Part shown: positions 1-51,266 of the stretch, piece by piece
How the letters are laid out: the number at the start of each line of letters is the position of its first letter
Numbering within the stretch: the first letter of the stretch is position 1
Source of the DNA: an uncultured Candidatus Saccharibacteria bacterium
GTDB taxonomy: Bacteria; Patescibacteriota; Minisyncoccia; Phycocordibacterales; CAIZLB01
Assembly: GCA_964500215.1 (NCBI GenBank)
Contig: CAZCNA010000001.1
Span: 1-54,600, forward strand
Reading direction: 5' to 3'
Length of the DNA stretch: 54,600 nt
The notes under the pieces: generated by a model
Database searches by the model: none
What the model saw: the letters and a program-made list of their open reading frames with translations, nothing else
Told to the model about the DNA's origin: nothing
Program-made: the position numbers and the translations under genes

Positions 1-665
<665 letters not shown>

Positions 666-1200: not shown

Positions 1201-1887
1201 TTATCGATTGATAACTTCTTTTTCCATTCGTTCGATAGTACGAGCCGCAGCATCGCGTCCACCCAAACCAAATGCAAGTCCGAATGCAAGTGAAATTGCA
1301 ATAACAATTCCCATCGCAATTGTCTGAATCAATGTCTGTGCAACCTGAAGCTGATCAAGTGCTGCAAGAACTGCAAACACGAGAATCGCCCATTTTGCGA
1401 TAGTACCGATTGCATGACCTGATCGAACTCCTGCAGCAGCAGAAGATGCCGCTACAATCTTTTTTACAACGTCAGCAATTACCACAGCTACCATAAGAAT
1501 AAGTACTGCGACAATTACTCGAGGTAAGTAATTAATTACAATTACCTGCAAGAAGAGAGTCACCTGTGGAAGTCCTAATACCTGAAGAGAAGCAAGTAGG
1601 AATACTGCAACGATAAACCACTTTACCAAAGAGCCAACAAAGACACCTGAGTTAAGAGGAATACCACCCTTCTGGAGTGTCTGCTCTACTCCCGCTTCAC
1701 GGAGAGCTGAATCAACTTTGATAGCTCGGAAACCCTTTGCTACCAATTTTCCAATGAAAGATCCAACAACCCAACCAATAGCGAAAATAATAAGAGCGAC
1801 AAATAACAATACAACGATCTGTAATACACTTGGCCATAGACCAAAGAAAGATGCCTGAATTGCTTCGCCCCATGTAGTTAATAACAT
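1201..1887 (-). CDS. Multi-pass membrane protein with repeated conserved-TM-helix units (resembles the N-terminal region of MscS-type channels)
   Basis: 228 aa with several hydrophobic helices separated by short basic loops (e.g. GKLVAKGFRAIKVD, KKIVAASSAAAG). Terminator downstream. Confidence 0.6.
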   Translation of the reverse strand: MLLTTWGEAIQASFFGLWPSVLQIVVLLFVALIIFAIGWVVGSFIGKLVAKGFRAIKVDSALREAGVEQTLQKGGIPLNSGVFVGSLVKWFIVAVFLLASLQVLGLPQVTLFLQVIVINYLPRVIVAVLILMVAVVIADVVKKIVAASSAAAGVRSGHAIGTIAKWAILVFAVLAALDQLQVAQTLIQTIAMGIVIAISLAFGLAFGLGGRDAAARTIERMEKEVINR

Positions 1888-2782: not shown

Positions 2783-3187
2783 GAGTTCTACCTTTCCACC
2801 AGCATCCTCAATCTGCTTCTTGAGAGCTTCAGCATCTTCTTTCTTAACGCCTTCCTTGATGAGAGCAGGAGCGGCATCAACGAGATCCTTTGCTTCCTTA
2901 AGACCGAGACCGAGAACTTCCTTTACAATCTTGATGATTGAAATCTTGTTTGCACCAGCATCAGCGAGGTGAACATTGAATGAAGATTTCTCTTCAGCCG
3001 CTGCACCAGCTGCTGCAGGAGCTGCAACTGCAACAGCAGCTGCTGATACTCCGAATTTCTTTTCAAGAAACTTCACGAGTTCGTGGAGTTCGAGAACAGA
3101 CATCTTTTCGATAGCTTCAACTACAGTTTTGAACTGAGCTGGAGTTTCTACAACTTCTGCCTGTGTGTTTGTTGTTTCTTCTGACAT
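2777..3187 (-). CDS. rplL: 50S ribosomal protein L7/L12
   Basis: 136 aa with an Ala-rich hinge ([16 protein letters not shown]) and the C-terminal domain [21 protein letters not shown]...GGKVELK. Confidence 0.95.
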
Positions 3188-23214: not shown

Positions 23215-25164
23215 CTACTCTGTTACTTTATCCTGACCGTATATATAGTTTGGATCTTCCTCTATTTTGATATCGCGAGGACCGAGCATTGTTTCTACGA
23301 TGACATCCGAGAAGGCGTCTTTGCCTGCAAGGCGCTGATTATTAATCACTGTTGGACTGGTGCCTATTTGGCTCACACTTGGAGTGAGAACAACTTGGTA
23401 TGAGAATTCCTTGGCTGCAGATGTATACCCTACACCAGGACCGATATCGCCGAGAGTGAATGTGAGTTCACGTTTGTCAGCGTTGTATGTAAAGGCAGAA
23501 TTTTCTGGATACACTTTGTTAATCCATCGAACATAACTTGGGAGTGTTGTTGTGTATGTCACGCCTTTCACAGTGTTGAAAGAGTTTCCTACAGTCACCA
23601 TAACTGTATATGTACTTTCAAGCTCTGCCTTTGGTGGAAACGGACCTGTGTTTTCAAACGGACCAACACTTCGCACAAGGATAGAGTTGAATGCCAACCC
23701 TGATGCGACTTTTACTTCGCGAGAAACTGTTGATTTTATTTCTTCGGGAACATTATCTTCATTCAATCGCTTTCCACGAATTGTAAGTTCGACGTTTATA
23801 GAAGGACGACGGAATTCTGCGTTATTTTTCTCTGTTGGAGGAAGTGAAGCAAACGCAAACTGAACTCGGCCAACCTGGCCCGGACCGATTTGTGCGAGAT
23901 CTTCGAGTGTCGATTTATCCCATAGAATAGTACTGTCTTTTGATCGGTAGAATCCTCGATCCCCGCCCACCGTTGATTTATCAAGCATTGAACCTATAAC
24001 TTTTGCTTCGATAACAATGTCGTTGATTGGCACATCGAGATTATTCTGCCAAATGATTTCACCATTCACTGCATTTCCTGCTGTTGCGACATACACGGGA
24101 TCTCCTTTTCCGTTGAGAGCAATATCCGCGCCGAGGAATGGCTTTTTGACCGCGAGAGCGGCAGTCGTGTTCACAAAGATAGTGCCAATGTTTGATTCAT
24201 CGCGAGCATCCTCTGTTCCAGCATAAAATCTGAATACGCGTTCTTCATTATTTTCACCTACGATTTTCCCTCTCAAAATAATCTTTCGTTCTGCTCCGGG
24301 AGCAATATCTCCAAGATGCCATACATTATCCCCTGACAATGGAGCAACGTCAGAACTCAAATATTTGAATCCAAATGGATAATCCACTTTGAGCACAACT
24401 CCATTCACAACAGATGTAGAGTTTGATACGACATCAATCACAAATTCAGTTTCTTGGTTGGCTGTGATTTCTTTGAGGTATTTTACGTTCAACGTGATTG
24501 GTGAAGATCCGATGAAAATTGGATATTCTTTTTCTTTTACAAAAATAGTGTCTGTTTCAGGCACACGATATTCAAGGGTCACTTTGATAACTTTTCGTAC
24601 GTTTTCTTCTCCAAAGAGAACTGATTTCACATTTGTTCGAATAGTCTCTCCTGCCTTGATTGTACCCACAGGGACACGAGCACTCGACATTGGTGTTTTC
24701 TTGTCACCCGCTTCTCGGGTACCTTCGGGATATGTGACAATCATGTCAGTCAGCACCATATCTGTCTTGTTGAGGTTTGTTATATCCACGTCGAGCGAAA
24801 GTTCTTCGCCGGCAGGCGTAGATACAGGACCAATCAATTTAATATCAATATTATCTGAAGAAATGAGATTGCCTCCGCCTAGATATATATATGCAGCACC
24901 GGCGATTGCAGCAACGAGAACAATACCGGCAAAACCGAGGATGATTTTAAGAAATTTTGATGAAAAACCCTTGTAGCCGCCCGTGGCAGCTTCAGCCTTC
25001 TCTACAGAAATTGTAGAATCTGCATCCTCAGCAGAAGTCCCCCATGATGTATGCACAATAGTGGCATGCGGATGAAGTTTTCCACGATGTGGAGCTGGGA
25101 TAGTATCTGAATTTGAATAGAGCTTTTTCTTTAGTTGTTCAATTTTGCTATCATCTTGCGACAT
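23215..25164 (-). CDS. Membrane-anchored protein with a large repetitive beta-sandwich (CARDB/DUF11-like) ectodomain; function unknown
   Basis: 649 aa: cytoplasmic N-terminus, one TM helix (FLKIILGFAGIVLVAAIAGAAYIYL), then repeated ~100-aa beta-rich units. Confidence 0.6.
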   Translation of the reverse strand: MSQDDSKIEQLKKKLYSNSDTIPAPHRGKLHPHATIVHTSWGTSAEDADSTISVEKAEAATGGYKGFSSKFLKIILGFAGIVLVAAIAGAAYIYLGGGNLISSDNIDIKLIGPVSTPAGEELSLDVDITNLNKTDMVLTDMIVTYPEGTREAGDKKTPMSSARVPVGTIKAGETIRTNVKSVLFGEENVRKVIKVTLEYRVPETDTIFVKEKEYPIFIGSSPITLNVKYLKEITANQETEFVIDVVSNSTSVVNGVVLKVDYPFGFKYLSSDVAPLSGDNVWHLGDIAPGAERKIILRGKIVGENNEERVFRFYAGTEDARDESNIGTIFVNTTAALAVKKPFLGADIALNGKGDPVYVATAGNAVNGEIIWQNNLDVPINDIVIEAKVIGSMLDKSTVGGDRGFYRSKDSTILWDKSTLEDLAQIGPGQVGRVQFAFASLPPTEKNNAEFRRPSINVELTIRGKRLNEDNVPEEIKSTVSREVKVASGLAFNSILVRSVGPFENTGPFPPKAELESTYTVMVTVGNSFNTVKGVTYTTTLPSYVRWINKVYPENSAFTYNADKRELTFTLGDIGPGVGYTSAAKEFSYQVVLTPSVSQIGTSPTVINNQRLAGKDAFSDVIVETMLGPRDIKIEEDPNYIYGQDKVTE

Positions 25165-25242: not shown

Positions 25243-25845
25243 CTACAAATGACTTTCTTCGAGTGATGCGTAGATTTCTGCTTCCGCTTCCCTTCTCAAT
25301 GAGACAAATTGTTCGAGGATGGGTTGCGAAAATGAAATTTCCTTGAGAAATGGCGTGAGGCGTGCGTCGTTTGTTCCATATCCGAGCACTTTCAATAAAT
25401 AGAGCTTCGCGAGTAACTCAGTGGCGTCAATATATTCTGTGGTAGTCACAAACGAATCACGATCACTAAAGCAAAATGCAGAAACCGTTGATAAAATCTT
25501 GAACACCTCTTCATTACGGCCTTCTTCAGGCATGAGTCGTTTTGTAAACAACAATACACGTGCAAGCATCTTGCGAACAGGCAACGGTAACCGCTTATCA
25601 TAGAGTGAGATAAGCTTTCGAGCGCTTGTGATACGCCACATTTCTTTTCCGCGAACAACAGCGAGTGATGAAAACGAAAATTCCTGCAAAGAGTACCTAA
25701 GTTTTGATTTTAACAAACGCACACCTTGAGCAGAAGCTCGGATGAGACCCAGGTCTTTTGTAAACAATGTATACAGTCGATTAGATTCACCGATATCAAC
25801 GGCTTCAATCACAAATCCTTCTGTTTGATATATATGATATGACAT
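25243..25845 (-). CDS. recO: DNA repair protein RecO (short, 200 aa, no obvious zinc finger)
   Basis: OB-fold N-terminus YQTEGFVIEAVDIGESNRLYTLFTKDLGLIRASAQGVR. Its ATG overlaps the ileS stop (TAATG). Confidence 0.8.
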   Translation of the reverse strand: MSYHIYQTEGFVIEAVDIGESNRLYTLFTKDLGLIRASAQGVRLLKSKLRYSLQEFSFSSLAVVRGKEMWRITSARKLISLYDKRLPLPVRKMLARVLLFTKRLMPEEGRNEEVFKILSTVSAFCFSDRDSFVTTTEYIDATELLAKLYLLKVLGYGTNDARLTPFLKEISFSQPILEQFVSLRREAEAEIYASLEESHL

Positions 25846-28800
25846 TATGCACGAGCGACGTGAACTCGAAGTCGCATCGCATCGATAGCGATTTCTTCAC
25901 CTTCGTTTGCTCCAAATGATACAGATGTCGCCAATACAGCCTTACTGAGCTCTGTTTGATACTTCTTGATCAATGCTTCTGTCGCTTCATCTCCTGCGAT
26001 TGTCATAGAGATTGAGTCTGTTGGAGAAAGGCCGATTTTCTTTCGGATGTCTTGGATTGCGCGCATGAGTTCTCGGAGTGTTCCCTCCTCGATAAGTTCT
26101 GGAGTCAATTGTTGATCAACAGTCACAACATTTTTCACATCAGTCGCAACTGTCTGCCATTGTACGGCCTTAACATTTACTTCATCTTTGATAAGGTCGA
26201 TTGCTTGTGGGAATGTCTCGAATGTTACATCTGCATTCTGTACTGTGACACTCGCAAGTGGTTGTCGAACTTTGAGACTATGTTTTGCTCGGTCGGCAAG
26301 AGCGGCTTCTACTATCTTTCGCACAGCTGTCATTTTCTCGAGCACTTCTGTGTCTGTTTCCACTGTTATTGGCCACCGCTCGAGATGAACACTTTCCTTC
26401 TTTGTGCCTCGTGTAAGTTTCAAATACAAATCTTCTGCAAAGAACGGCGTAAATGGCGCCATAATAAGTGACAATACATATAATACGTATGCGGTTGTAT
26501 CGATGGCCTGTTTCTTGTCTGCAACATCATCACCCTTGTATCTATCTCGTGATCGTCGGAGATACCATGTTGAAAGATCATCAACGAGATCCATGAGTGG
26601 TCGCGCGGCTCGATCAATCTCATATTTTTCAAAAGCAGCTGTTGTCGCATTCACAGTTTCATCAAGTCGAGCAAGAATCCATGTGTCGAGCATATTTGTA
26701 CTTTGTGGTCGTTCGAATGTGCCGGCATATTCACCCGCATATGTCTCATAAAATGTATGTACGTTACCAAGTCGATTGAACAACTTTTTGTTTACTTCAT
26801 CGAGACCTTTTTCTGAGAATAATACTTCTTCACCATGTACCGCCGGTGAAGCCATCAAATAATATCGGAGGGAATCCGCGCCATATTTTTCTACCGTCGG
26901 CATGAGATCGGGATAATTTTTGAGACTCTTTGACATCTTTCGGCCATCTTCAGCGAGAATGAGACCGTTCACAACAACATTTCGATATGGAGCTTTGTTG
27001 AACAATCCCACACACATAACGAGCATGAGATAAAACCACCCTCGAGTTTGGTCGAGACCTTCTGCGATGAAATCAGCAGGAAAAGCTGAACTGCCATCGG
27101 CGAGTAATGTATCTTTTTTCTCAAATGGATAATGCTGACTAGCAAAAGACATTGATCCCGAGTCGTACCACACATCAAATACTTCAGGAATTCGTCGCAT
27201 GACATCCCCTTCTGCATTCACCCATGTGACATCATCAATATATGGTCGGTGCAAATCGAGTTCATACTCTTCATTCTTTGGAAGCTGTTTGAAATCAATT
27301 GCATGAAGAGATGCGGTCGCGTCAGATGTATCTTGCCAATGACCTCGAATCATATCTCGAATAGTCTTCCCCTCGGCGATGAGCTTCGCCAATCGGAGAG
27401 GCAATCCATGCGTAATAATGAGAATATCCTCATTCTTGTGCTTTGCATCTATTTCATACAAGAATTCAGCAACACGTTTTTTGACATCAGCAACAGACTC
27501 GCCATTCGGCGTTCGCTTTGTCATGCGTTCTTCGTTATTTTTGAAATATGCAAATCGCTCCGTCCACGTGCCACCTTCAAACTCCCCTGCGTTCACTTCT
27601 CGGAGTCGTTCGTCGTATATGATTTTTGTTTTATCAAATCCAATTGTCTCTGCCACAAGCTCCGCTGTCTGCTTTGTTCGTTTGAAATCTGAAGCATAGA
27701 TAATAGTCACACCTTTTTCTTTGAGTTCTTCGGCGCTCTTTTGCACTTCACCTACTCCCTTTTCTGTAAGACTGAATTTGTTGAGATCAATAGAGTTAAT
27801 GATGTCTTTTACATTTGATTCAGATTCGCCATGTCGCATCAACACAAAATTGTTTCCGTTTGAAACGATTTTTTCTTTGAGCTCTGCAATTGACCCAATG
27901 AGTTCGATTGCTCCGGTTTGTTCGCCTCGCCATACAGGAAGCGGTGCTCCCCAATATCGACTTCGAGACATTGCCCAATCACGTGCGCCTTCGAGCCATT
28001 TGCCGAATCGTCCTTCGCCAATCTCTTTTGGTACCCAATTCACTTTGTTATTTTCAGCAATGAGCTGGTCTTTCATGGCAGTTACTTTCACAAACCATGA
28101 CGATGTCGCAAAGTTGAGAAGCGGTGTGTCACATCGCCAACAATGTGGATACGAATGAATATATTTTTCTTTTGAAAAGAGAGCCTTTCGTGCAGCCAAT
28201 TGTTTTATCACTTCGATGTCTGTCTTTTGGTGATCCCCTTTTGGCTTCGCCGTCATGCCTGCAAATACAGTCACTTCAGATTTGATTGTACCGTCTGGAA
28301 GAACATGATGAATAACAGGCAGATTGACTGCGCGTGCGAGATTCATGTCATCTTCGCCGAAGGCTGGTGCAATATGCACGATACCTGTACCATCTGTAGC
28401 CGTTACAAAATCCGCGTTATATACCTTCCACGCTTGTGGTCGCTTCATTTCGTTATCACCCTGCAATGTGTTTGGTGCGGTGTAATATTCAAACGGAGGC
28501 TTGTATGAATGTCCGGCAAGCTGTGCGCCTGTGAGTTCTGCGATGACTTCGTGTGCTTCCTTGATAACTTCAAGTCTATCTTTTGCAACGATGTATGTTT
28601 CTTTTGAGCCGTCTTCTTTTGTGACAGCGGCTTTCACATAGGTGATGTCAGGATTAACAGCAAGGGCCACGTTCCCAGGAAGCGTCCAGGGTGTAGTTGT
28701 CCACGCAACGAAAAATGTGCCTGGTTCATCGACGAGTTCGAACTTTGCGTACGCTGATAGATCCGTGATGTCTCTGTATGCACCCGGCTGATTTGTTTCT

Positions 28801-29402
28801 GCATTTGAAAGGACAGTCTGACATCGAGGACAATATGGCATCACTTTGTATCCTTCATAGACGAGACCCTTTGTGTGCAATTCTTTGAAAGACCACATCA
28901 CCGATTCCATGAATGAAGAATCCATTGATCGATAATCGTTTTCCATATCCACCCATCGTCCGAGGCGTGGAATGATTCGTTTCCATTCATCCGCATATCG
29001 AAGCACACTTTCGCGCGCAGCTTTGTTAAAGACATCGATACCGAGTTCTTCGATTTGTTTTTTGTTTTGAAGACCTAATTCTTTTTCGATAAGGTTTTCA
29101 ATTGGAAGACCGTGACAATCCCATCCCCATCGTCGAGGCACGCGAAAACCGCGCATTGTTTTGTATCGTGGAATAACATCTTTGAGTGTAGTTGGAAGAA
29201 TATGACCATAATGTGGAAGTCCCGTTGCATATGGTGGTCCATCATAAAAGACGAAGTTGCCATGAGGGGCATCCTTGGTGAGTGTTTGTTCGAAGATATT
29301 GTGAGATTCCCAATATTCTAATATCTGGTGCTCTCGCTTCCCTGCTGGAGTTTGCTCCAAAACAGGTTGTTCAGTTGTCGGGTTGGCGTCTTCGTTGGTC
29401 AT
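25845..29402 (-). CDS. ileS: Isoleucine--tRNA ligase carrying an in-frame internal histidine-phosphatase domain
   Basis: PHYGH (HIGH, residues 63-67), WTTTPWTLPGN editing domain, CWRCDTP, KMSKS (822-826). 1185 aa, roughly 200 aa of which is the insert described below. Confidence 0.95.
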   Translation of the reverse strand: MTNEDANPTTEQPVLEQTPAGKREHQILEYWESHNIFEQTLTKDAPHGNFVFYDGPPYATGLPHYGHILPTTLKDVIPRYKTMRGFRVPRRWGWDCHGLPIENLIEKELGLQNKKQIEELGIDVFNKAARESVLRYADEWKRIIPRLGRWVDMENDYRSMDSSFMESVMWSFKELHTKGLVYEGYKVMPYCPRCQTVLSNAETNQPGAYRDITDLSAYAKFELVDEPGTFFVAWTTTPWTLPGNVALAVNPDITYVKAAVTKEDGSKETYIVAKDRLEVIKEAHEVIAELTGAQLAGHSYKPPFEYYTAPNTLQGDNEMKRPQAWKVYNADFVTATDGTGIVHIAPAFGEDDMNLARAVNLPVIHHVLPDGTIKSEVTVFAGMTAKPKGDHQKTDIEVIKQLAARKALFSKEKYIHSYPHCWRCDTPLLNFATSSWFVKVTAMKDQLIAENNKVNWVPKEIGEGRFGKWLEGARDWAMSRSRYWGAPLPVWRGEQTGAIELIGSIAELKEKIVSNGNNFVLMRHGESESNVKDIINSIDLNKFSLTEKGVGEVQKSAEELKEKGVTIIYASDFKRTKQTAELVAETIGFDKTKIIYDERLREVNAGEFEGGTWTERFAYFKNNEERMTKRTPNGESVADVKKRVAEFLYEIDAKHKNEDILIITHGLPLRLAKLIAEGKTIRDMIRGHWQDTSDATASLHAIDFKQLPKNEEYELDLHRPYIDDVTWVNAEGDVMRRIPEVFDVWYDSGSMSFASQHYPFEKKDTLLADGSSAFPADFIAEGLDQTRGWFYLMLVMCVGLFNKAPYRNVVVNGLILAEDGRKMSKSLKNYPDLMPTVEKYGADSLRYYLMASPAVHGEEVLFSEKGLDEVNKKLFNRLGNVHTFYETYAGEYAGTFERPQSTNMLDTWILARLDETVNATTAAFEKYEIDRAARPLMDLVDDLSTWYLRRSRDRYKGDDVADKKQAIDTTAYVLYVLSLIMAPFTPFFAEDLYLKLTRGTKKESVHLERWPITVETDTEVLEKMTAVRKIVEAALADRAKHSLKVRQPLASVTVQNADVTFETFPQAIDLIKDEVNVKAVQWQTVATDVKNVVTVDQQLTPELIEEGTLRELMRAIQDIRKKIGLSPTDSISMTIAGDEATEALIKKYQTELSKAVLATSVSFGANEGEEIAIDAMRLRVHVARA
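27267..27860 (-). other. Histidine-phosphatase (PGAM/PhoE/CobC-like) domain inserted within ileS (about residues 515-712)
   Basis: NNFVLMRHGESESN (RHG catalytic motif; His524 codon at 27831-27833), ASDFKRTKQTA, REVNAGEFEGGTW, EDILIITHGLPLR (second catalytic His). Flanked by the IleRS blocks YWGAPLPVW and DLHRPYIDD...EVFDVWYDSGS. Confidence 0.8.
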
Positions 29403-29483
29403 ATATTTATAAAATAAGCGCTTTTATAGTAGCACTTTATGAACAAAAAATGAACGTAGTCTTATGAAATGATGAAAAATATA

Positions 29484-29533
29484 TAAAAAAGAGACCCCCT
29501 GAGAGCGACAGTAACGTGCGCTCCCAGAGGGTC
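29484..29533 (-). terminator. Strong rho-independent terminator (15-bp stem plus TCTTTTTT), about 80 nt upstream of the ileS ATG
   Basis: On the minus strand: GACCCTCTGGGAGCG-CACGTTACTGT-CGCTCTCAGGGGGTC-TCTTTTTT. Stems at 29519-29533 and 29493-29507. Confidence 0.8.
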
Positions 29534-30071
29534 CGGGTGGGGGGATTCAGCGTCTGGAGGGACGGAAAACCCGTAAAGGCTGCCGATGCATGGGCGCCCA
29601 ATTGCAATATCCTTTGGAAAGGCGCTTTTGGGCCCGAAGCTGTCGGTGACTTTTAGTGTTTTTCTTGGTCGCAGCCATGGTCTTTACCGGCAGCGAGCCC
29701 CTTGGTGGTGGCTGTAGCGGGTCAAGCCACCGTGCTGCCGCGTCGGGCGAGCAGCCTTCCGTTCGGGCTTGCGAGGCGTGGCCTCCGTCGCCGTCGGAAT
29801 GTATCCAGTCAATTTCCGATGACCGATGGTGCGGCTCACGTGCGCCAACAACGGGCACTCATCCTGGGGCAGAAACTGCTGGCGAGGAATGCCGAGGCTA
29901 TTGTGAAGCTCCGGCAAGCAATGCTTTTGAACGCTCTCACGAGGTTCATTGGAATCAGTGATGACCAGCACACGGTCATCGACGTACACTTCAATCATGG
30001 GTCAATAATAGGTTTGTTTGATTTTCGTTTCCACGTCGACTGGCACCCTTCGTGTGTTCAGTCCGAGGGGT
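29534..30071 (-). other. GC-rich transcription unit of unknown product (candidate 104-aa basic ORF at 29684..29998, or a structured RNA / ileS leader)
   Basis: Bounded by a consensus promoter and a strong terminator. GC is 42/60 on line 29701-29760, against 22/60 on a typical coding line (35041-35100). Nested helices are present, e.g. CGGCAGC-AC-GGTGGCT-(11 nt)-AGCCACC-(12 nt)-GCTGCCG. There is no Shine-Dalgarno sequence before the ATG at 29998. Confidence 0.4.
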
Positions 30072-30100
30072 ATTATATCATATATATACATAATAGTCAA
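30072..30100 (-). promoter_or_regulatory. Consensus promoter TTGACT-17 nt-TATAAT driving the GC-rich unit
   Basis: Reverse complement: TTGACT (30095-30100), a 17-nt spacer, TATAAT (30072-30077). Confidence 0.6.
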
Positions 30101-30185
30101 TTTGTGGTGTTGTGGGGCTTTGTTGAGCCTCCCCTACACACAGACTTCACCCTAATAGCATCTATCCGCTATCGTTTCGTCAACA

Positions 30186-31118
30186 TTATGAAAATAAACC
30201 GGCGAGAGCTTTTCGAACTTTATATTTGAGTGTTCCGCACTTCTTTGGGCAGAGTGCCTGATTGTTTCTTGTCTCCTGCTCACACGTTTCGCAACAAATA
30301 AATTGATAGTGGCAGATATCATCAGAACAATTTACAAATCGCTCACATGGAATGTGACATCGTATGCATGAACCAACGACTGAACGCTCCTTTGTGGTGT
30401 CCATTGTAATTCGATTATCAAACACATAGAGAGCACCTTCGAAATCTTGGCCTGGAAATTTTTCCATATATGTTGCCATTCCCCCATCGAGTTGATATAC
30501 ATCGGTGAATCCTTTCTTCATCAAATATCCAGAGGCTTTTTCACATCGCACACCGCCGGTACATACGGTCACTACTTTTTTATTTTTGTATGGTTTAAGC
30601 TTTGACACAATCTGAGGAAGTTCACGAAAGTTGCTCATACCAGGATCGATTGAGCCTTTGAAATGTCCAACTTCAAATTCGTATGAATTTCTCATGTCGA
30701 TAATCTGAAAATCTTCACCTTTTTCGTACCATTCTTTGAGTGTCTCTGCGGGAAGATGAACACCTGTGAGTTTGTTTGGATCGACATCATCATCACCGAG
30801 GCGTACAGATACAATTTCAGGGCGCACTTTCACTTTCATTTTGTCGAATGAAGATCCATTGCCTTCGCTCTTTTTGAACACAACATCAGAGAATTGCCCG
30901 AATGTTCCTTCAGAACCATCTTGTCCGTGAAGAACTTTGCAATATGTTTCGATGTCTTTTGTTTTGCCTTCGAGAGTGCCGTTTATTCCTTCATGTGCAA
31001 TGAGCACACGTCCCTTGAGGCCGAGTGTTGAACACAAGTCTTTGTGCCATTTCATAAAACCTTCAGGATCGGCAACGTGTGTGTATTTGTAGTAAAGAAT
31101 AATTGTATATTCTGACAT
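30186..31118 (-). CDS. trhO: Rhodanese-domain protein of the UPF0176/YceA family (tRNA U34 hydroxylase TrhO-like)
   Basis: ILYYKYTHV...RVLIAHEGINGTLEG, rhodanese active-site loop VCTGGVRCEKA, Cys-rich C-terminus. Confidence 0.8.
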   Translation of the reverse strand: MSEYTIILYYKYTHVADPEGFMKWHKDLCSTLGLKGRVLIAHEGINGTLEGKTKDIETYCKVLHGQDGSEGTFGQFSDVVFKKSEGNGSSFDKMKVKVRPEIVSVRLGDDDVDPNKLTGVHLPAETLKEWYEKGEDFQIIDMRNSYEFEVGHFKGSIDPGMSNFRELPQIVSKLKPYKNKKVVTVCTGGVRCEKASGYLMKKGFTDVYQLDGGMATYMEKFPGQDFEGALYVFDNRITMDTTKERSVVGSCIRCHIPCERFVNCSDDICHYQFICCETCEQETRNNQALCPKKCGTLKYKVRKALAGLFS

Positions 31119-40396: not shown

Positions 40397-40576
40397 TTAT
40401 GCGAGGAAGTTTGTAAGAAGTTTTGTAAAAAGGTAATCGAAAAATCCGAGGTATACGGAAACAAATACTGAAATCGCAATCACGATGATTGTGAAAATAA
40501 GTGTCTGCTGTTTTGTTGGCCAACTTACGTGCTTCATTTCTGCACGTGTTTCCTTGATGTAATCTGTAATTGCCAT
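40397..40576 (-). CDS. secE: Preprotein translocase subunit SecE
   Basis: 59 aa. IKETRAEMKHVSWPTKQQT followed by one TM helix. Conserved secE-nusG-rplK order. Confidence 0.9.
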   Translation of the reverse strand: MAITDYIKETRAEMKHVSWPTKQQTLIFTIIVIAISVFVSVYLGFFDYLFTKLLTNFLA

Positions 40577-40628
40577 AATTTTTGTATTTAAAAACACCCT
40601 CCCGGGTGTGGCTGTTATGAATGTATAT

Positions 40629-40657
40629 ATATTACTCCTTTTTTAGTCAATTGTCAA
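40629..40657 (-). promoter_or_regulatory. Promoter TTGACA-17 nt-TAATAT for secE-nusG-rplK
   Basis: Hexamers at 40652-40657 and 40629-40634 on the minus strand. Confidence 0.55.
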
Positions 40658-50994: not shown

Positions 50995-51191
50995 CTCGTT
51001 CAAAGAGACTTGTGAGCGCGAGGGCGCGAGTACATACAATAAAAAGGAATCGGTCCTTACAGGACCAGTACAGGTTTCGCATCGTACTCGCCTCCGCGTT
51101 GCTCCGGCTCCGTGCGATATGCTCAACCCTTTCGATTCCTCGACGGAGGCGCAACTTTGCGCCTCCTCGGGCGCACATTCGCTCCGCTCAT
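50995..51191. other. GC-rich ~190-nt multi-helix element between tRNA-Val and tRNA-Arg (candidate small ncRNA; strand and family unassigned)
   Basis: 36/60 GC on line 51061-51120. Helices: GGAGGCGCA-(4 nt)-TGCGCCTCC, GCGAGTAC...GTACTCGC, GGTCC-(5 nt)-GGACC, and end-closing TGAGCG...CGCTCA. The only ORFs here (75-128 aa) are track ORFs overlapping on both strands with implausible protein sequence. Confidence 0.35.
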
Positions 51192-51266
51192 TGGTGCCCC
51201 CGCGAGGAATCGAACCTCGAATAACGGCTTAGAAGTCCGCAGTTATATCCATTTAACTACAGGGGC
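51192..51266 (-). tRNA. tRNA-Arg (TCT) with encoded CCA
   Basis: Reverse complement: GCCCCTG-TA-GTTA-AATGGATA-TAAC-T-GCGGA-CTTCTAA-GCCGT-TATT-CGAGG-TTCGATT-CCTCG-CGGGGGC-A-CCA. One A-G mismatch closes the anticodon loop. Confidence 0.8.

Follow-up and report, generated by a model that had tools for sequence, protein, structure and literature searches.

A predicted transcription unit between trhO and ileS

In the window analysed here (the whole stretch of DNA, 54.6 kb, from a Candidatus Saccharibacteria bacterium), trhO (30186..31118, minus strand) and ileS (25845..29402, minus strand) are separated by 783 bp (29403-30185), the same size as in the first-pass annotation when re-counted. The identities of both genes were checked against Pfam, and the unit described below has argS, trhO and ileS as neighbours. 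The gap holds an island of about 580 nt with 58-65% GC (0.58-0.65 reached in 200-nt windows over the island), against 42% for the genome; only two islands of at least 0.56 GC occur in the window, and this is one of them. The 42 G or C residues counted earlier in the 60 nucleotides at 29701-29760 are exact. The contrast with the neighbouring genes also stands, although the figure of about 22 in 60 given for them was slightly too low (measured GC 0.42-0.46, or about 25-28 in 60). With 42.4% GC, the host genome is only moderately AT-rich. The sense strand of the unit is 31% C overall, and a U-poor (T 0.13-0.22) and C-rich sense strand was found in every unit compared. The features of the gap, in the order of transcription, are as follows:

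30095..30100, minus strand: -35 hexamer TTGACT (promoter scan 11/12; TTGAC invariant in the alignment with the related loci L016, L017 and L018)
30072..30080, minus strand: extended -10 element TGATATAAT, with TATAAT at 30077-30072 (promoter scan)
30031..30064, minus strand: 5' leader motif, comprising GGAC, a 5'-terminal hairpin (pairs 30063-30038) and GUCGACGUGG (alignable to relatives)
29999..30030, minus strand: A/C-rich, G-poor, unstructured leader up to the AUG (like the leaders in related units)
29684..29998, minus strand: ORF104, putative first cistron, 104 aa, pI 9.5 (first AUG, codon periodicity)
29547..29678, minus strand: ORF43, possible second cistron, 43 aa, pI 12 (AUG 5 nt past the ORF104 stop)
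29535..29544, minus strand: C-tract CCCCCCACCC, directly before the terminator (sequence reading)
29485..29534, minus strand: intrinsic terminator with a 16+2-bp G+C-rich stem, a loop and T6 (dG -32 kcal/mol, z = -5.4)
29426..29434, minus strand: extended -10 promoter of ileS, TGCTACTAT, outside the unit and 24 nt before the ileS ATG (29402)

The near-consensus promoter proposed in the first-pass annotation, TTGACT-17-TATAAT at 30100..30072 (minus strand), was recovered with 11/12 positions matching and a TG extension. A relaxed pattern, TTGAC-N18-TAnnAT, has two sites in the 54.6 kb, where 0.75 would be expected. At the other end, folding places the terminator stem at 29534-29493, followed by T6. 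The terminator and its T-tail had been recognised correctly, and the stem of 15 bp then reported was slightly conservative, since folding gives 16+2 bp. The loop of this terminator exceeds 8 nt, which is why a pattern scan missed it. Every related unit is likewise closed by a terminator hairpin, with -17.5 to -38 kcal/mol. At the sequence level, the unit thus has the 17-nt spacing of a sigma70-type promoter and the G+C-rich hairpin and U-tract of an intrinsic terminator. The earlier description of an autonomous promoter-to-terminator unit with odd composition and no assigned product is supported by the promoter, the terminator and the GC scan. Judged by these signals, the island is genuine and forms a transcription unit of its own, and we infer that it is both transcribed and translated.

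The trhO-ileS slot was compared in 14 related loci of Patescibacteria (Saccharibacteria-like). Each holds one to three GC-rich, U-poor units in this slot, and the parts of the unit recur in all 14.

ileS is preceded by its own predicted promoter

The terminator ends about 80 nt ahead of the ileS ATG, and ileS is regulated by T-boxes in Firmicutes and Actinobacteria. Both points speak for a 5' leader or attenuator of ileS (T-box-like or leader-peptide), with the terminator governing read-through; a leader or attenuator role had been called possible in the first-pass annotation. Like an ileS T-box leader (RF00230), the unit lies upstream of ileS and has a terminator hairpin. Unlike such a leader, it has no Stem I, specifier or T-box sequence in a covariance-model search, and no T-box or other cis-regulatory Rfam family was matched at E<=10. 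A T-box or attenuator has no promoter between the terminator and the ORF it regulates; here the putative extended -10 promoter of ileS lies in exactly that place. This element is nearly identical in L017. An element of the TGCTAnTAT type is found before ileS in L002, L004-L007, L019, L021 and L022, with the variant TGATAGTAT in L020, so that nearly every relative in which ileS follows has one between its terminator and the start codon of ileS. Since ileS has a conserved promoter of its own past the terminator, the unit is not its leader. Moreover, the gap of the relatives holds one to three complete, independent units, some of them encoding signal-peptide proteins; the extremely stable terminator has no evident antiterminator pairing as an alternative. 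We regard the leader or attenuator role as largely refuted and as having hardly any chance of being correct.

A conserved 5' leader precedes the first AUG

The 5' leader motif is the sole part of the unit that can be aligned to relatives; with L016, the alignment covers 53 nt at 81% identity (E = 6e-8). It would begin at the 5' end of the transcript, as transcription is predicted to start at about 30065. Its hairpin folds in 16 of the 16 units examined, with differing sequences and a consistent position relative to the -10 element; the evidence for it consists of single-sequence folds and an alignment (A6). In L018, a U-A pair within the hairpin is exchanged for C-G. A covariance model of the leader (R1) recovers syntenic 5' UTRs in relatives outside its training set, and detects no second copy in the 54.6-kb window. 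In the sub-clade of the window, a GUYGWCGUGG box after the hairpin is additionally conserved, and this box may be a binding site for a protein or an RNA. The whole motif is a candidate regulatory element.

The motif is followed by the A/C-rich leader; each related unit has such a leader ahead of its ORF, and so does secE in the window. The first AUG of the transcript comes after a 67-nt leader, at +73 from the -10 element, and opens ORF104. The statement that this ORF has no Shine-Dalgarno sequence is true, but it carries no weight against the ORF, because essentially no gene in the window has one.

The second of the two TTGAC-N18-TAnnAT promoters in the window drives secE (40657..40400, minus strand; Pfam E = 1.8e-18). 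Both genes combine this promoter type with a hairpin close to the 5' end, and in both an A-rich leader without Shine-Dalgarno sequence leads to the ATG of a small ORF. However, secE codes for a conserved protein found universally, uses A+T-rich codons as the host does and shares its transcript with nusG, whereas the unit is an orphan, is G+C-rich and has its own terminator.

ORF104 carries a frame-specific coding signature

The 104-aa ORF described in the first-pass annotation exists as stated, as do the overlapping and antisense ORFs. Its N-terminal half is acidic or neutral and its C-terminal half basic (33% R/K/H). GC content at codon positions 1, 2 and 3 is 0.64, 0.47 and 0.69 (0.65, 0.31 and 0.63 in the N-terminal half), and A makes up only 0.07 of position 3 against 0.23 and 0.32 of positions 1 and 2. 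This periodicity has P~6e-4 against ORFs of at least 80 aa simulated with a first-order Markov model, and that of the N-terminal half was matched by no simulated ORF (roughly P<1e-3). In sliding windows, it begins at the ATG of ORF104, spans 29998 to about 29700, is gone past the stop of the ORF and appears in its own frame only. The codon usage is non-host: the log-likelihood ratio per codon is -0.35, whereas 44 host genes give +0.43 +/- 0.17; GC3 reaches 0.69, outside the 0.26-0.51 of host genes, and CGA, which accounts for 53% of host Arg codons, is never used. ORF104 thus combines the first accessible AUG behind a genome-typical leader and periodicity in its own frame with a codon usage that is not host-like. 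A single-sequence AF2 model reached a pLDDT of 47 and is uninformative.

ORF43 begins 5 nt past the stop of ORF104; in L016 and L017, too, two cistrons lie close together, 3-25 nt apart. ORF43 is uncertain as a coding sequence, because it shows no significant periodicity of its own.

These data bear on a second explanation, in which the unit would give a small or mid-size non-coding RNA whose function lies in the 5' hairpin motif, in the G+C-rich structure or in both, the ORFs being by-products of U-poor sequence. The sense strand is U-poor and C-rich, so long ORFs are likely by chance: the length of ORF104 is by itself not significant in such sequence (P = 0.15 for at least 104 aa), and the other frames and the antisense strand likewise hold long ORFs. 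C/A-rich RNA also translates as a basic, disordered-looking protein in any frame. The orphan status and non-host codon usage of ORF104, and a conservation limited to the 5' leader, point the same way. The nested helices named in the first-pass annotation are present in the sequence. Folding gives some support too: the whole transcript reaches z = -3.8 on the minus strand (plus strand, -1.5), and the body of the unit without the terminator z = -2.3, only modestly better than shuffles. On the other side, RNA structure offers no explanation for the depletion of A at position 3 and the GC periodicity, whose extent is exactly that of ORF104, and the layout of leader and AUG is identical to that of secE. 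Since the body cannot be aligned among close relatives, no conserved structure is demonstrable in it. With no Rfam match (see below), the modest folding of the body, its failure to align and the frame-specific periodicity, the default of a structured RNA proposed earlier for such islands is not upheld. We consider a non-coding RNA unlikely, while granting it a real share of the probability. A role of the transcript as a CsrA sponge was rejected, as its 11 GGA motifs are not enriched over the roughly 9 expected.

Homologues and known families

No homologue of ORF104 was found by a word search of 5.8 billion clusters or by back-translated scans of metagenome and viral contigs. A phmmer search of 1.84 billion representatives returned one spurious match only, P0001, a 664-aa tandem-repeat artefact in which 11 weak repeats are summed. 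Exact look-ups of ORF104, ORF43 and ORF103 in the protein collection recorded none of them, ORF104 being absent among 15 billion proteins. Searches of Pfam-A, NCBIfam, PHROGs, PADLOC and PDB sequences gave nothing below E = 0.04 or near cut-offs. None of the ORFs that the closest relatives (70-77% TrhO identity) have in this slot resembles ORF104, and no homologue under purifying selection was found in these searches. A resemblance of its residues 9-35 to the N-domain of the L001 family ('LVTVYLSDG...') was rejected, as the family HMM gave no score and pairwise z was at most 0.4.

At the RNA level, a search of 29300-30300 with Rfam 15 at E<=10 matched no family; those covered include RNase P, tmRNA, SRP RNA, 6S RNA, T-boxes, riboswitches and large non-coding RNAs such as OLE, GOLLD, HEARO, ROOL and raiA. 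The best score was that of RT-19 (16.8 bits against 78.3, E = 1.5), followed at chance level by Prion_pknot, GNAS-AS1_2 and suhB. The RT-19 match overlies the conserved leader and was judged to be chance because it does not recur in relatives. At the Rfam gathering thresholds, the whole window yields only an LSU rRNA fragment and four tRNAs, and eight relatives gave nothing usable; ARAGORN found no tmRNA in the window. The first-pass annotation had seen no match to RNase P, tmRNA, SRP RNA or a T-box, which is confirmed and extends to every other Rfam family. Literature searches brought up nothing relevant to the unit.

Related loci keep the cassette and some of the proteins

The three closest loci share the promoter and the 5' leader motif with the window and nothing else, the body of the unit being unalignable even to the closest relatives. 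The main ORFs of the units have a pI of 9.4-12, save one, and a C-terminal half with 20-50% R/K/H. Among the sister units, the L001 and L022 proteins, and likewise those of L021 and L019, resemble each other with a Smith-Waterman z of 11, at TrhO divergences of 70-74%, which go far past that of the L005/L007 pair. For L021/L019, pS is 0.78 and pN 0.46. This last pair is 94% identical, and the four-fold sites of its TrhO and IleRS already differ at 51-58%. Between L005b and L007b, pN/pS is 0.37, with differences in the conserved stretch mostly at third positions; between the unit-1 ORFs of this closely related pair, L005a and L007a, it is 0.95, so that this body is neutral at the protein level, as a non-coding RNA would allow. 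Against such an RNA, sister units keep protein and not DNA sequence, and by these alignments and substitution patterns some of them are demonstrably protein-coding. For the L001 protein, AF2 predicts a beta-beta-beta-alpha N-domain (pLDDT 75-79) and a disordered tail. A Foldseek hint of likeness between this domain and DUF971 (E = 0.38) was not used.

The same comparison weighs on the possibility that the unit is a recent horizontal import or decaying foreign G+C-rich remnant (from a high-GC host, say) that is transcribed by chance. Its GC content and GC3, an Arg codon choice alien to the host and the lack of ORF homologues in relatives would fit this origin, which the first-pass annotation had also put forward. 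However, in all relatives examined the slot contains a unit that is just as G+C-rich and has this promoter and 5' leader. No direct or inverted repeats of at least 12 nt flank the unit, and plasmid and phage blastn and a viral contig scan gave no match to it. In addition, unit orthologues of the sister loci keep a GC3 of 0.51-0.64 past synonymous saturation, in hosts with an overall GC of 0.37-0.45. Their high GC3 is therefore evidence of selection on composition and not of recent import. We find an import very improbable.

A hypermutation or DGR-like mechanism for the unalignable bodies was rejected. Neutral drift suffices, because the four-fold sites of L005 and L007 already differ at 51-58%. 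A further reading starts from this drift. The payload of the cassette would turn over at about the neutral rate under selection for an open frame and a G+C-rich, C-rich, U-poor composition, so that the slot would be a nursery continuously re-inventing small basic proteins whose function lies in composition, as in protamines, or would yield an RNA that depends on composition or C-tracts and not on sequence, with the leader box as an operator. In the operator part of this reading, the basic product, or another factor, might control the cassette through the conserved leader box. We hold the proposal as tentative and rather doubtful.

The C-rich 3' end

A dual-function transcript would be an mRNA whose C-rich 3' end acts like 6C or sX13 RNA by pairing with G-rich targets. 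The C-tract adjoins the terminator, and similar C-runs occur before or inside the terminators of L001, L005, L007, L017 and L022. This resembles 6C RNA (RF01066) and sX13 (RF02232), two sRNAs with C-rich loops, which have C-tracts beside or inside 3' hairpins. The 3' end of L017 has sub-threshold Rfam matches to both (sX13, 26.8 bits, E = 0.005; 6C, 24.5 bits), scores that are far under the gathering thresholds of 50 and 47 bits. Neither the window nor L016 matches 6C or sX13, even at E<=10, and several units lack the C-tract. At 31% C, a run of C6 is expected about 0.5 times per unit. The unit further differs from these RNAs in its transcript of about 580 nt and in an ORF with a coding signature. 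A second function at the 3' end is accordingly improbable in our view.

A proposed expression cassette for small basic proteins

We favour, with a probability of roughly 0.55, the reading of the unit as a lineage-specific operon for small, basic and fast-evolving proteins in a conserved expression cassette. The computations behind it gave the anatomy of the unit, its positional and leader conservation, the periodicity of ORF104 and the conservation of proteins in sister units. The transcript would most likely be a mono- to bicistronic mRNA for ORF104 and perhaps for a second, very basic peptide of 43 aa.

Under this proposal, a strong sigma70-type extended -10 promoter would fire at about 30065, and a 5'-terminal stem-loop would shield the 5' end of the transcript. 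The unstructured A/C-rich leader would then make the first AUG accessible to ribosomes, Shine-Dalgarno sequences being out of use in this genome. ORF104 would be translated, and ORF43 perhaps by reinitiation just past its stop. The very stable terminator would end the RNA and guard its 3' end, ahead of an independent ileS promoter. The cassette of promoter, leader motif and terminator has a conserved place between trhO and ileS in this Patescibacteria clade, while its payload would drift at close to the neutral rate, with a sense strand that stays G+C-rich, C-rich and U-poor. The payload would remain translatable into proteins with a basic and probably disordered C-terminal half.

The shielding role is suggested by analogy. 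5'-terminal stem-loops stabilise mRNAs, as in the E. coli ompA and the B. subtilis aprE and ermC leaders. As in these, the stem-loop of the unit would lie a few nucleotides from the predicted 5' end and be followed by an unstructured region for ribosome loading, and we infer a stabiliser from this likeness. Unlike the classic stabilisers, the sub-clade of the window adds the GUYGWCGUGG box after the hairpin.

The putative products recall rapidly evolving, composition-constrained basic proteins such as protamine-like proteins, H1-like tails and Chlamydia Hc1/Hc2. Like them, they would be small and basic, with C-terminal halves rich in R/K/H, and would keep their composition but hardly their sequence. 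The likeness stops short of homology, none having been found, and C/A-rich RNA could give such a basic composition as a by-product. With low confidence, we suggest that the function might be that of an abundant small basic protein that binds nucleic acids or ribosomes and in which composition matters over exact sequence.

Patescibacteria (CPR) genomes are tiny and gene-dense, so that a slot of 0.6 kb for a unit with strong predicted expression and no assigned product stands out. Coding or not, the unit is neither a known RNA family nor a regulatory leader of ileS. A non-coding unit would amount to a new RNA specific to the clade. Translation of ORF104 and its counterparts would make them a class of small, basic orphan proteins that are abundant and that standard annotation largely misses. 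They would also be a case of composition and expression signals conserved without sequence, which would bear on de novo genes and on selection for mRNA composition.

Organization of the trhO-ileS gap

The 783-bp gap separates trhO (30186..31118, minus strand), encoding a TrhO/UPF0176 protein with a rhodanese domain, from ileS (25845..29402, minus strand), encoding IleRS (both assigned by Pfam), with argS located upstream. Features of this region were the following:

30100-30072, minus strand: unit promoter, TTGACT-17-TATAAT with a TG extension
30064-30031, minus strand: 5' leader motif, consisting of GGAC, a hairpin, then GUYGWCGUGG
29684..29998, minus strand: ORF104, first ORF of the unit (104 aa)
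29547..29678, minus strand: ORF43 (43 aa)
29534-29485, minus strand: unit terminator, 16+2-bp stem followed by T6
29434-29426: extended -10 promoter TGCTACTAT, between the unit terminator and the ileS ATG
27324-27845, minus strand: histidine-phosphatase insert, IleRS aa 520-693

The first-pass annotation had described an autonomous unit with a promoter, a GC-rich body and a terminator, and this architecture was confirmed. The promoter matches at 11 of 12 positions, and the relaxed pattern TTGAC-N18-TAnnAT occurs just twice in the 54.6-kb window. The terminator was detected by folding (dG -32 kcal/mol, z = -5.4), a pattern scan having missed it because its loop is long. The DNA between them contains 58-65% G+C, compared with 42.4% for the genome; the reported 42/60 G+C at 29701-29760 is exact, whereas the neighbouring genes, put at 0.37, measured about 0.42-0.46. 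Only two G+C-rich islands of this kind are present in the whole window. The second (51000-51191, minus strand, ~170 nt) comes immediately downstream of tRNA-Arg(tct) (51192-51266) and includes the hairpin GAGGAGGCGCAAAGTTGCGCCTCCTC; a terminator-like GGTCCTGTAAGGACC and a T-run close it. It has no Rfam match at gathering and may be a tRNA-linked small RNA.

In the adjacent IleRS (1185 aa), a complete histidine-phosphatase domain (PF00300, E = 6e-36) interrupts the class I catalytic domain. This architecture was also called in four related Patescibacteria loci (L019-L022), so the IleRS-phosphatase fusion is clade-wide.

Known RNA families and the proposed ileS leader

Searched permissively against Rfam, 29300-30300 returned chance-level matches only (best RT-19, 16.8 bits against a gathering threshold of 78.3, E = 1.5), in agreement with the earlier failure to match the unit by eye to RNase P, tmRNA, SRP RNA or a T-box. 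The Rfam and tRNA content of the whole window is an LSU rRNA fragment and four tRNAs. At the window edge, positions 1-663 (minus strand) hold the 5' 594 nt of 23S rRNA; upstream of its 5' end lies a 228-aa ORF (1201..1887) and not a 16S gene, which suggests an unlinked rRNA arrangement.

A regulatory leader or attenuator of ileS had also been proposed. The promoter TGCTACTAT is located after the unit terminator, and its segment is nearly identical in L017, the closest relative. A TGCTAnTAT-type element precedes ileS in L002, L004-L007, L019, L021 and L022, with a TGATAGTAT variant in L020. With its own promoter, kept in relatives, ileS is therefore transcribed separately, and we give the leader reading hardly any credence.

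Coding potential of ORF104

We read the unit as a coding operon for one or two small proteins, with a probability of about 0.55. The first AUG of the transcript opens ORF104. G+C at codon positions 1, 2 and 3 is 0.64/0.47/0.69 (N-terminal half, 0.65/0.31/0.63), and the three-base periodicity is significant against first-order Markov simulations (P = 6e-4), with no simulated ORF matching the N-terminal half. The frequency of A is 0.23 and 0.32 at codon positions 1 and 2 but falls to 0.07 at position 3, a signal that, in sliding windows, starts at the ORF104 ATG and is gone past its stop. Only one other promoter in the window is as strong. It drives secE (Pfam E = 1.8e-18), and promoter, hairpin, A-rich leader and ATG are laid out there as in the unit. 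This secE (40400-40657, minus strand, 59 aa), upstream of nusG and driven by a TTGAC-N18-TAnnAT promoter, falls below the ORF-list cut-offs (40 aa near the unit, 100 aa window-wide).

Several observations weigh against coding. In a U-poor sequence the length of ORF104 does not reach significance (P = 0.15), its codon usage is non-host (log-likelihood ratio -0.35 per codon, GC3 0.69), it uses no CGA although this is 53% of host Arg codons, and the first units of the sister pair L005/L007 evolve at pN/pS 0.95. Among 1.84 billion protein representatives no homologue was found, the sole match being a tandem-repeat artefact; ORF104 was not found as a recorded gene product, and AF2 was uninformative. 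No known RNA or protein family includes the unit. ORF43, 5 nt after ORF104, has no periodicity of its own and is a candidate second cistron; the close bicistronic spacing recurs in L016 and L017, two of the closest relatives. For the whole transcript, the minus strand folds more stably than its shuffles (z = -3.8), which the plus strand does not (z = -1.5); much of the excess comes from the terminator, as the body without it gives z = -2.3. A purely non-coding RNA is considered unlikely.

The annotation correctly noted that ORF104 lacks a Shine-Dalgarno sequence, but this carries no information, since virtually no gene in the window has one. The upstream regions of 45 ORFs across the window were covered, and many genes, such as argS, ileS and the gene at 23215-25164, start 7-20 nt past a TAnnAT box, suggesting leaderless or very short-leader mRNAs. 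The unusual host preference for CGA (306/575 Arg codons) may reflect the tRNA-Arg repertoire of the lineage.

Units in related loci

With TrhO as anchor, 14 informative Patescibacteria loci were retrieved, one labelled Saccharibacteria (TrhO identity to the window 57-77%). The order argS-trhO-gap-ileS is kept wherever the contig permits, with a gap of 0.4-1.9 kb holding one to three autonomous units. Every informative locus has G+C-rich islands (~0.6) after trhO, against 0.37-0.45 overall.

Parts shared by the units of the trhO-ileS slot

Promoter: TTGAC-N17-TAnnAT
Hairpin: begins a few nt after the -10 element; folds in 16/16 units, with unrelated stem sequences
Leader: A/C-rich, G-poor
ORF: ATG-initiated, 42-109 aa
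Terminator: -17.5 to -38 kcal/mol

On the sense strand, all units have C at 0.28-0.34 and T at 0.13-0.22 (0.21 and 0.26 in genes). The main ORF products have pI 9.4-12 in all but one case, and C-terminal halves rich in R/K/H.

Sister units are demonstrably coding. Products of L001/L022 and L021/L019 align at z = 11 across TrhO divergences of 70-74%, a separation far exceeding that of L005/L007, a pair already close to saturation at synonymous sites. For the second units of L005/L007, pN/pS is 0.37, and differences in their conserved stretch fall mostly at third codon positions. For the L001 protein, AF2 confidently predicts a beta-beta-beta-alpha N-domain and, behind it, a basic tail that is disordered.

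Some slots contain an extra autonomous unit (L021 4722-5054, L022 4793-5116, L019 5359-5736), encoding a protein of ~110-125 aa whose N-terminal segment resembles a signal peptide (e.g. MKLKKVLSATLALAALSILAQA); none of the three proteins has a Pfam match. It seems that small orphan genes accumulate in the slot. A further small unit with a 64-aa ORF, its own TGTGATATAAT promoter and a terminator lies between trhO and the GGAC-leader unit in L018 (5960-6300), where the opposite strand has another TTGAC...GGAC promoter (~4955, minus strand) upstream of trhO.

Conserved leader, drifting body and maintained composition

Only the promoter and 5' leader motif are conserved with the window unit. The leader matches L016 at 81% over 53 nt (E = 6e-8), and across relatives the hairpin shows G-U in place of G-C pairs and, once, C-G in place of U-A. 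The four closest sequences were used to build a covariance model, which weakly recovered the first-unit leaders at the syntenic position in relatives outside the training set (L004/L012, E = 0.047; more weakly still L022, L005, L020 and L007, E = 1-9) and found no second copy in the window. The GUYGWCGUGG box could serve as an operator or a pairing site; in the predicted minimum-free-energy fold of the single window transcript it pairs with ORF104 codons 6-8.

Unit bodies could not be aligned between the window and relatives, and ORF104 resembles no ORF in their slots. Between L005 and L007, TrhO is 94% identical, yet 51-58% of four-fold sites differ. Identity in this pair is 65-85% for promoters, leaders, the ileS promoter and terminators, the last with compensatory changes, and 43% for the unit-1 body. 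Hypermutation was considered and is not needed to explain unalignable bodies, because four-fold sites already differ to this extent.

The unusual composition had been taken as a possible mark of recent import. Orthologous sister ORFs retain GC3 of 0.51-0.64 past synonymous saturation in hosts of 0.37-0.45 overall G+C (GC3 of the window's own genes, 0.37); composition is therefore maintained, whether through selection on the mRNA or through some biased process. The lack of flanking repeats around the unit and of detectable plasmid, phage or viral similarity agrees with this, leaving import very improbable.

A dual-function transcript with a C-rich 3' end is a doubtful alternative. The 3' end of the L017 unit (2899-3008) forms hairpins whose loops are C-rich, one of them a terminator with a CCCCC loop, and gives sub-threshold Rfam matches to sX13 (26.8 bits, E = 0.005) and 6C RNA (24.5 bits); C-runs also precede terminators in the window (29535-29544), L001, L005, L007 and L022.

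Proposed function

Under the coding reading, the unit would be a strongly transcribed, stabilised small mRNA, because it combines a strong promoter, a 5'-terminal hairpin and a strong terminator. The hairpin may act as a stabiliser by analogy with ompA and aprE, precedents for such 5' elements. The SD-independent leader would hand ORF104, and possibly ORF43, to the ribosome, yielding small proteins with basic, probably disordered tails; nucleic-acid or ribosome binding is a guess at their function. In this the unit would function as the mRNA of any ordinary small gene does. It stands out by combining four traits: its chromosomal slot is fixed, its expression signals and leader motif are conserved, its composition is held far from the genomic norm, and its payload sequence is essentially free to drift. 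On present evidence the unit is not a new RNA class and is classed as a kind of orphan small-protein gene. For the study of small proteins and de novo genes in CPR bacteria it offers a clean case that can be tested.
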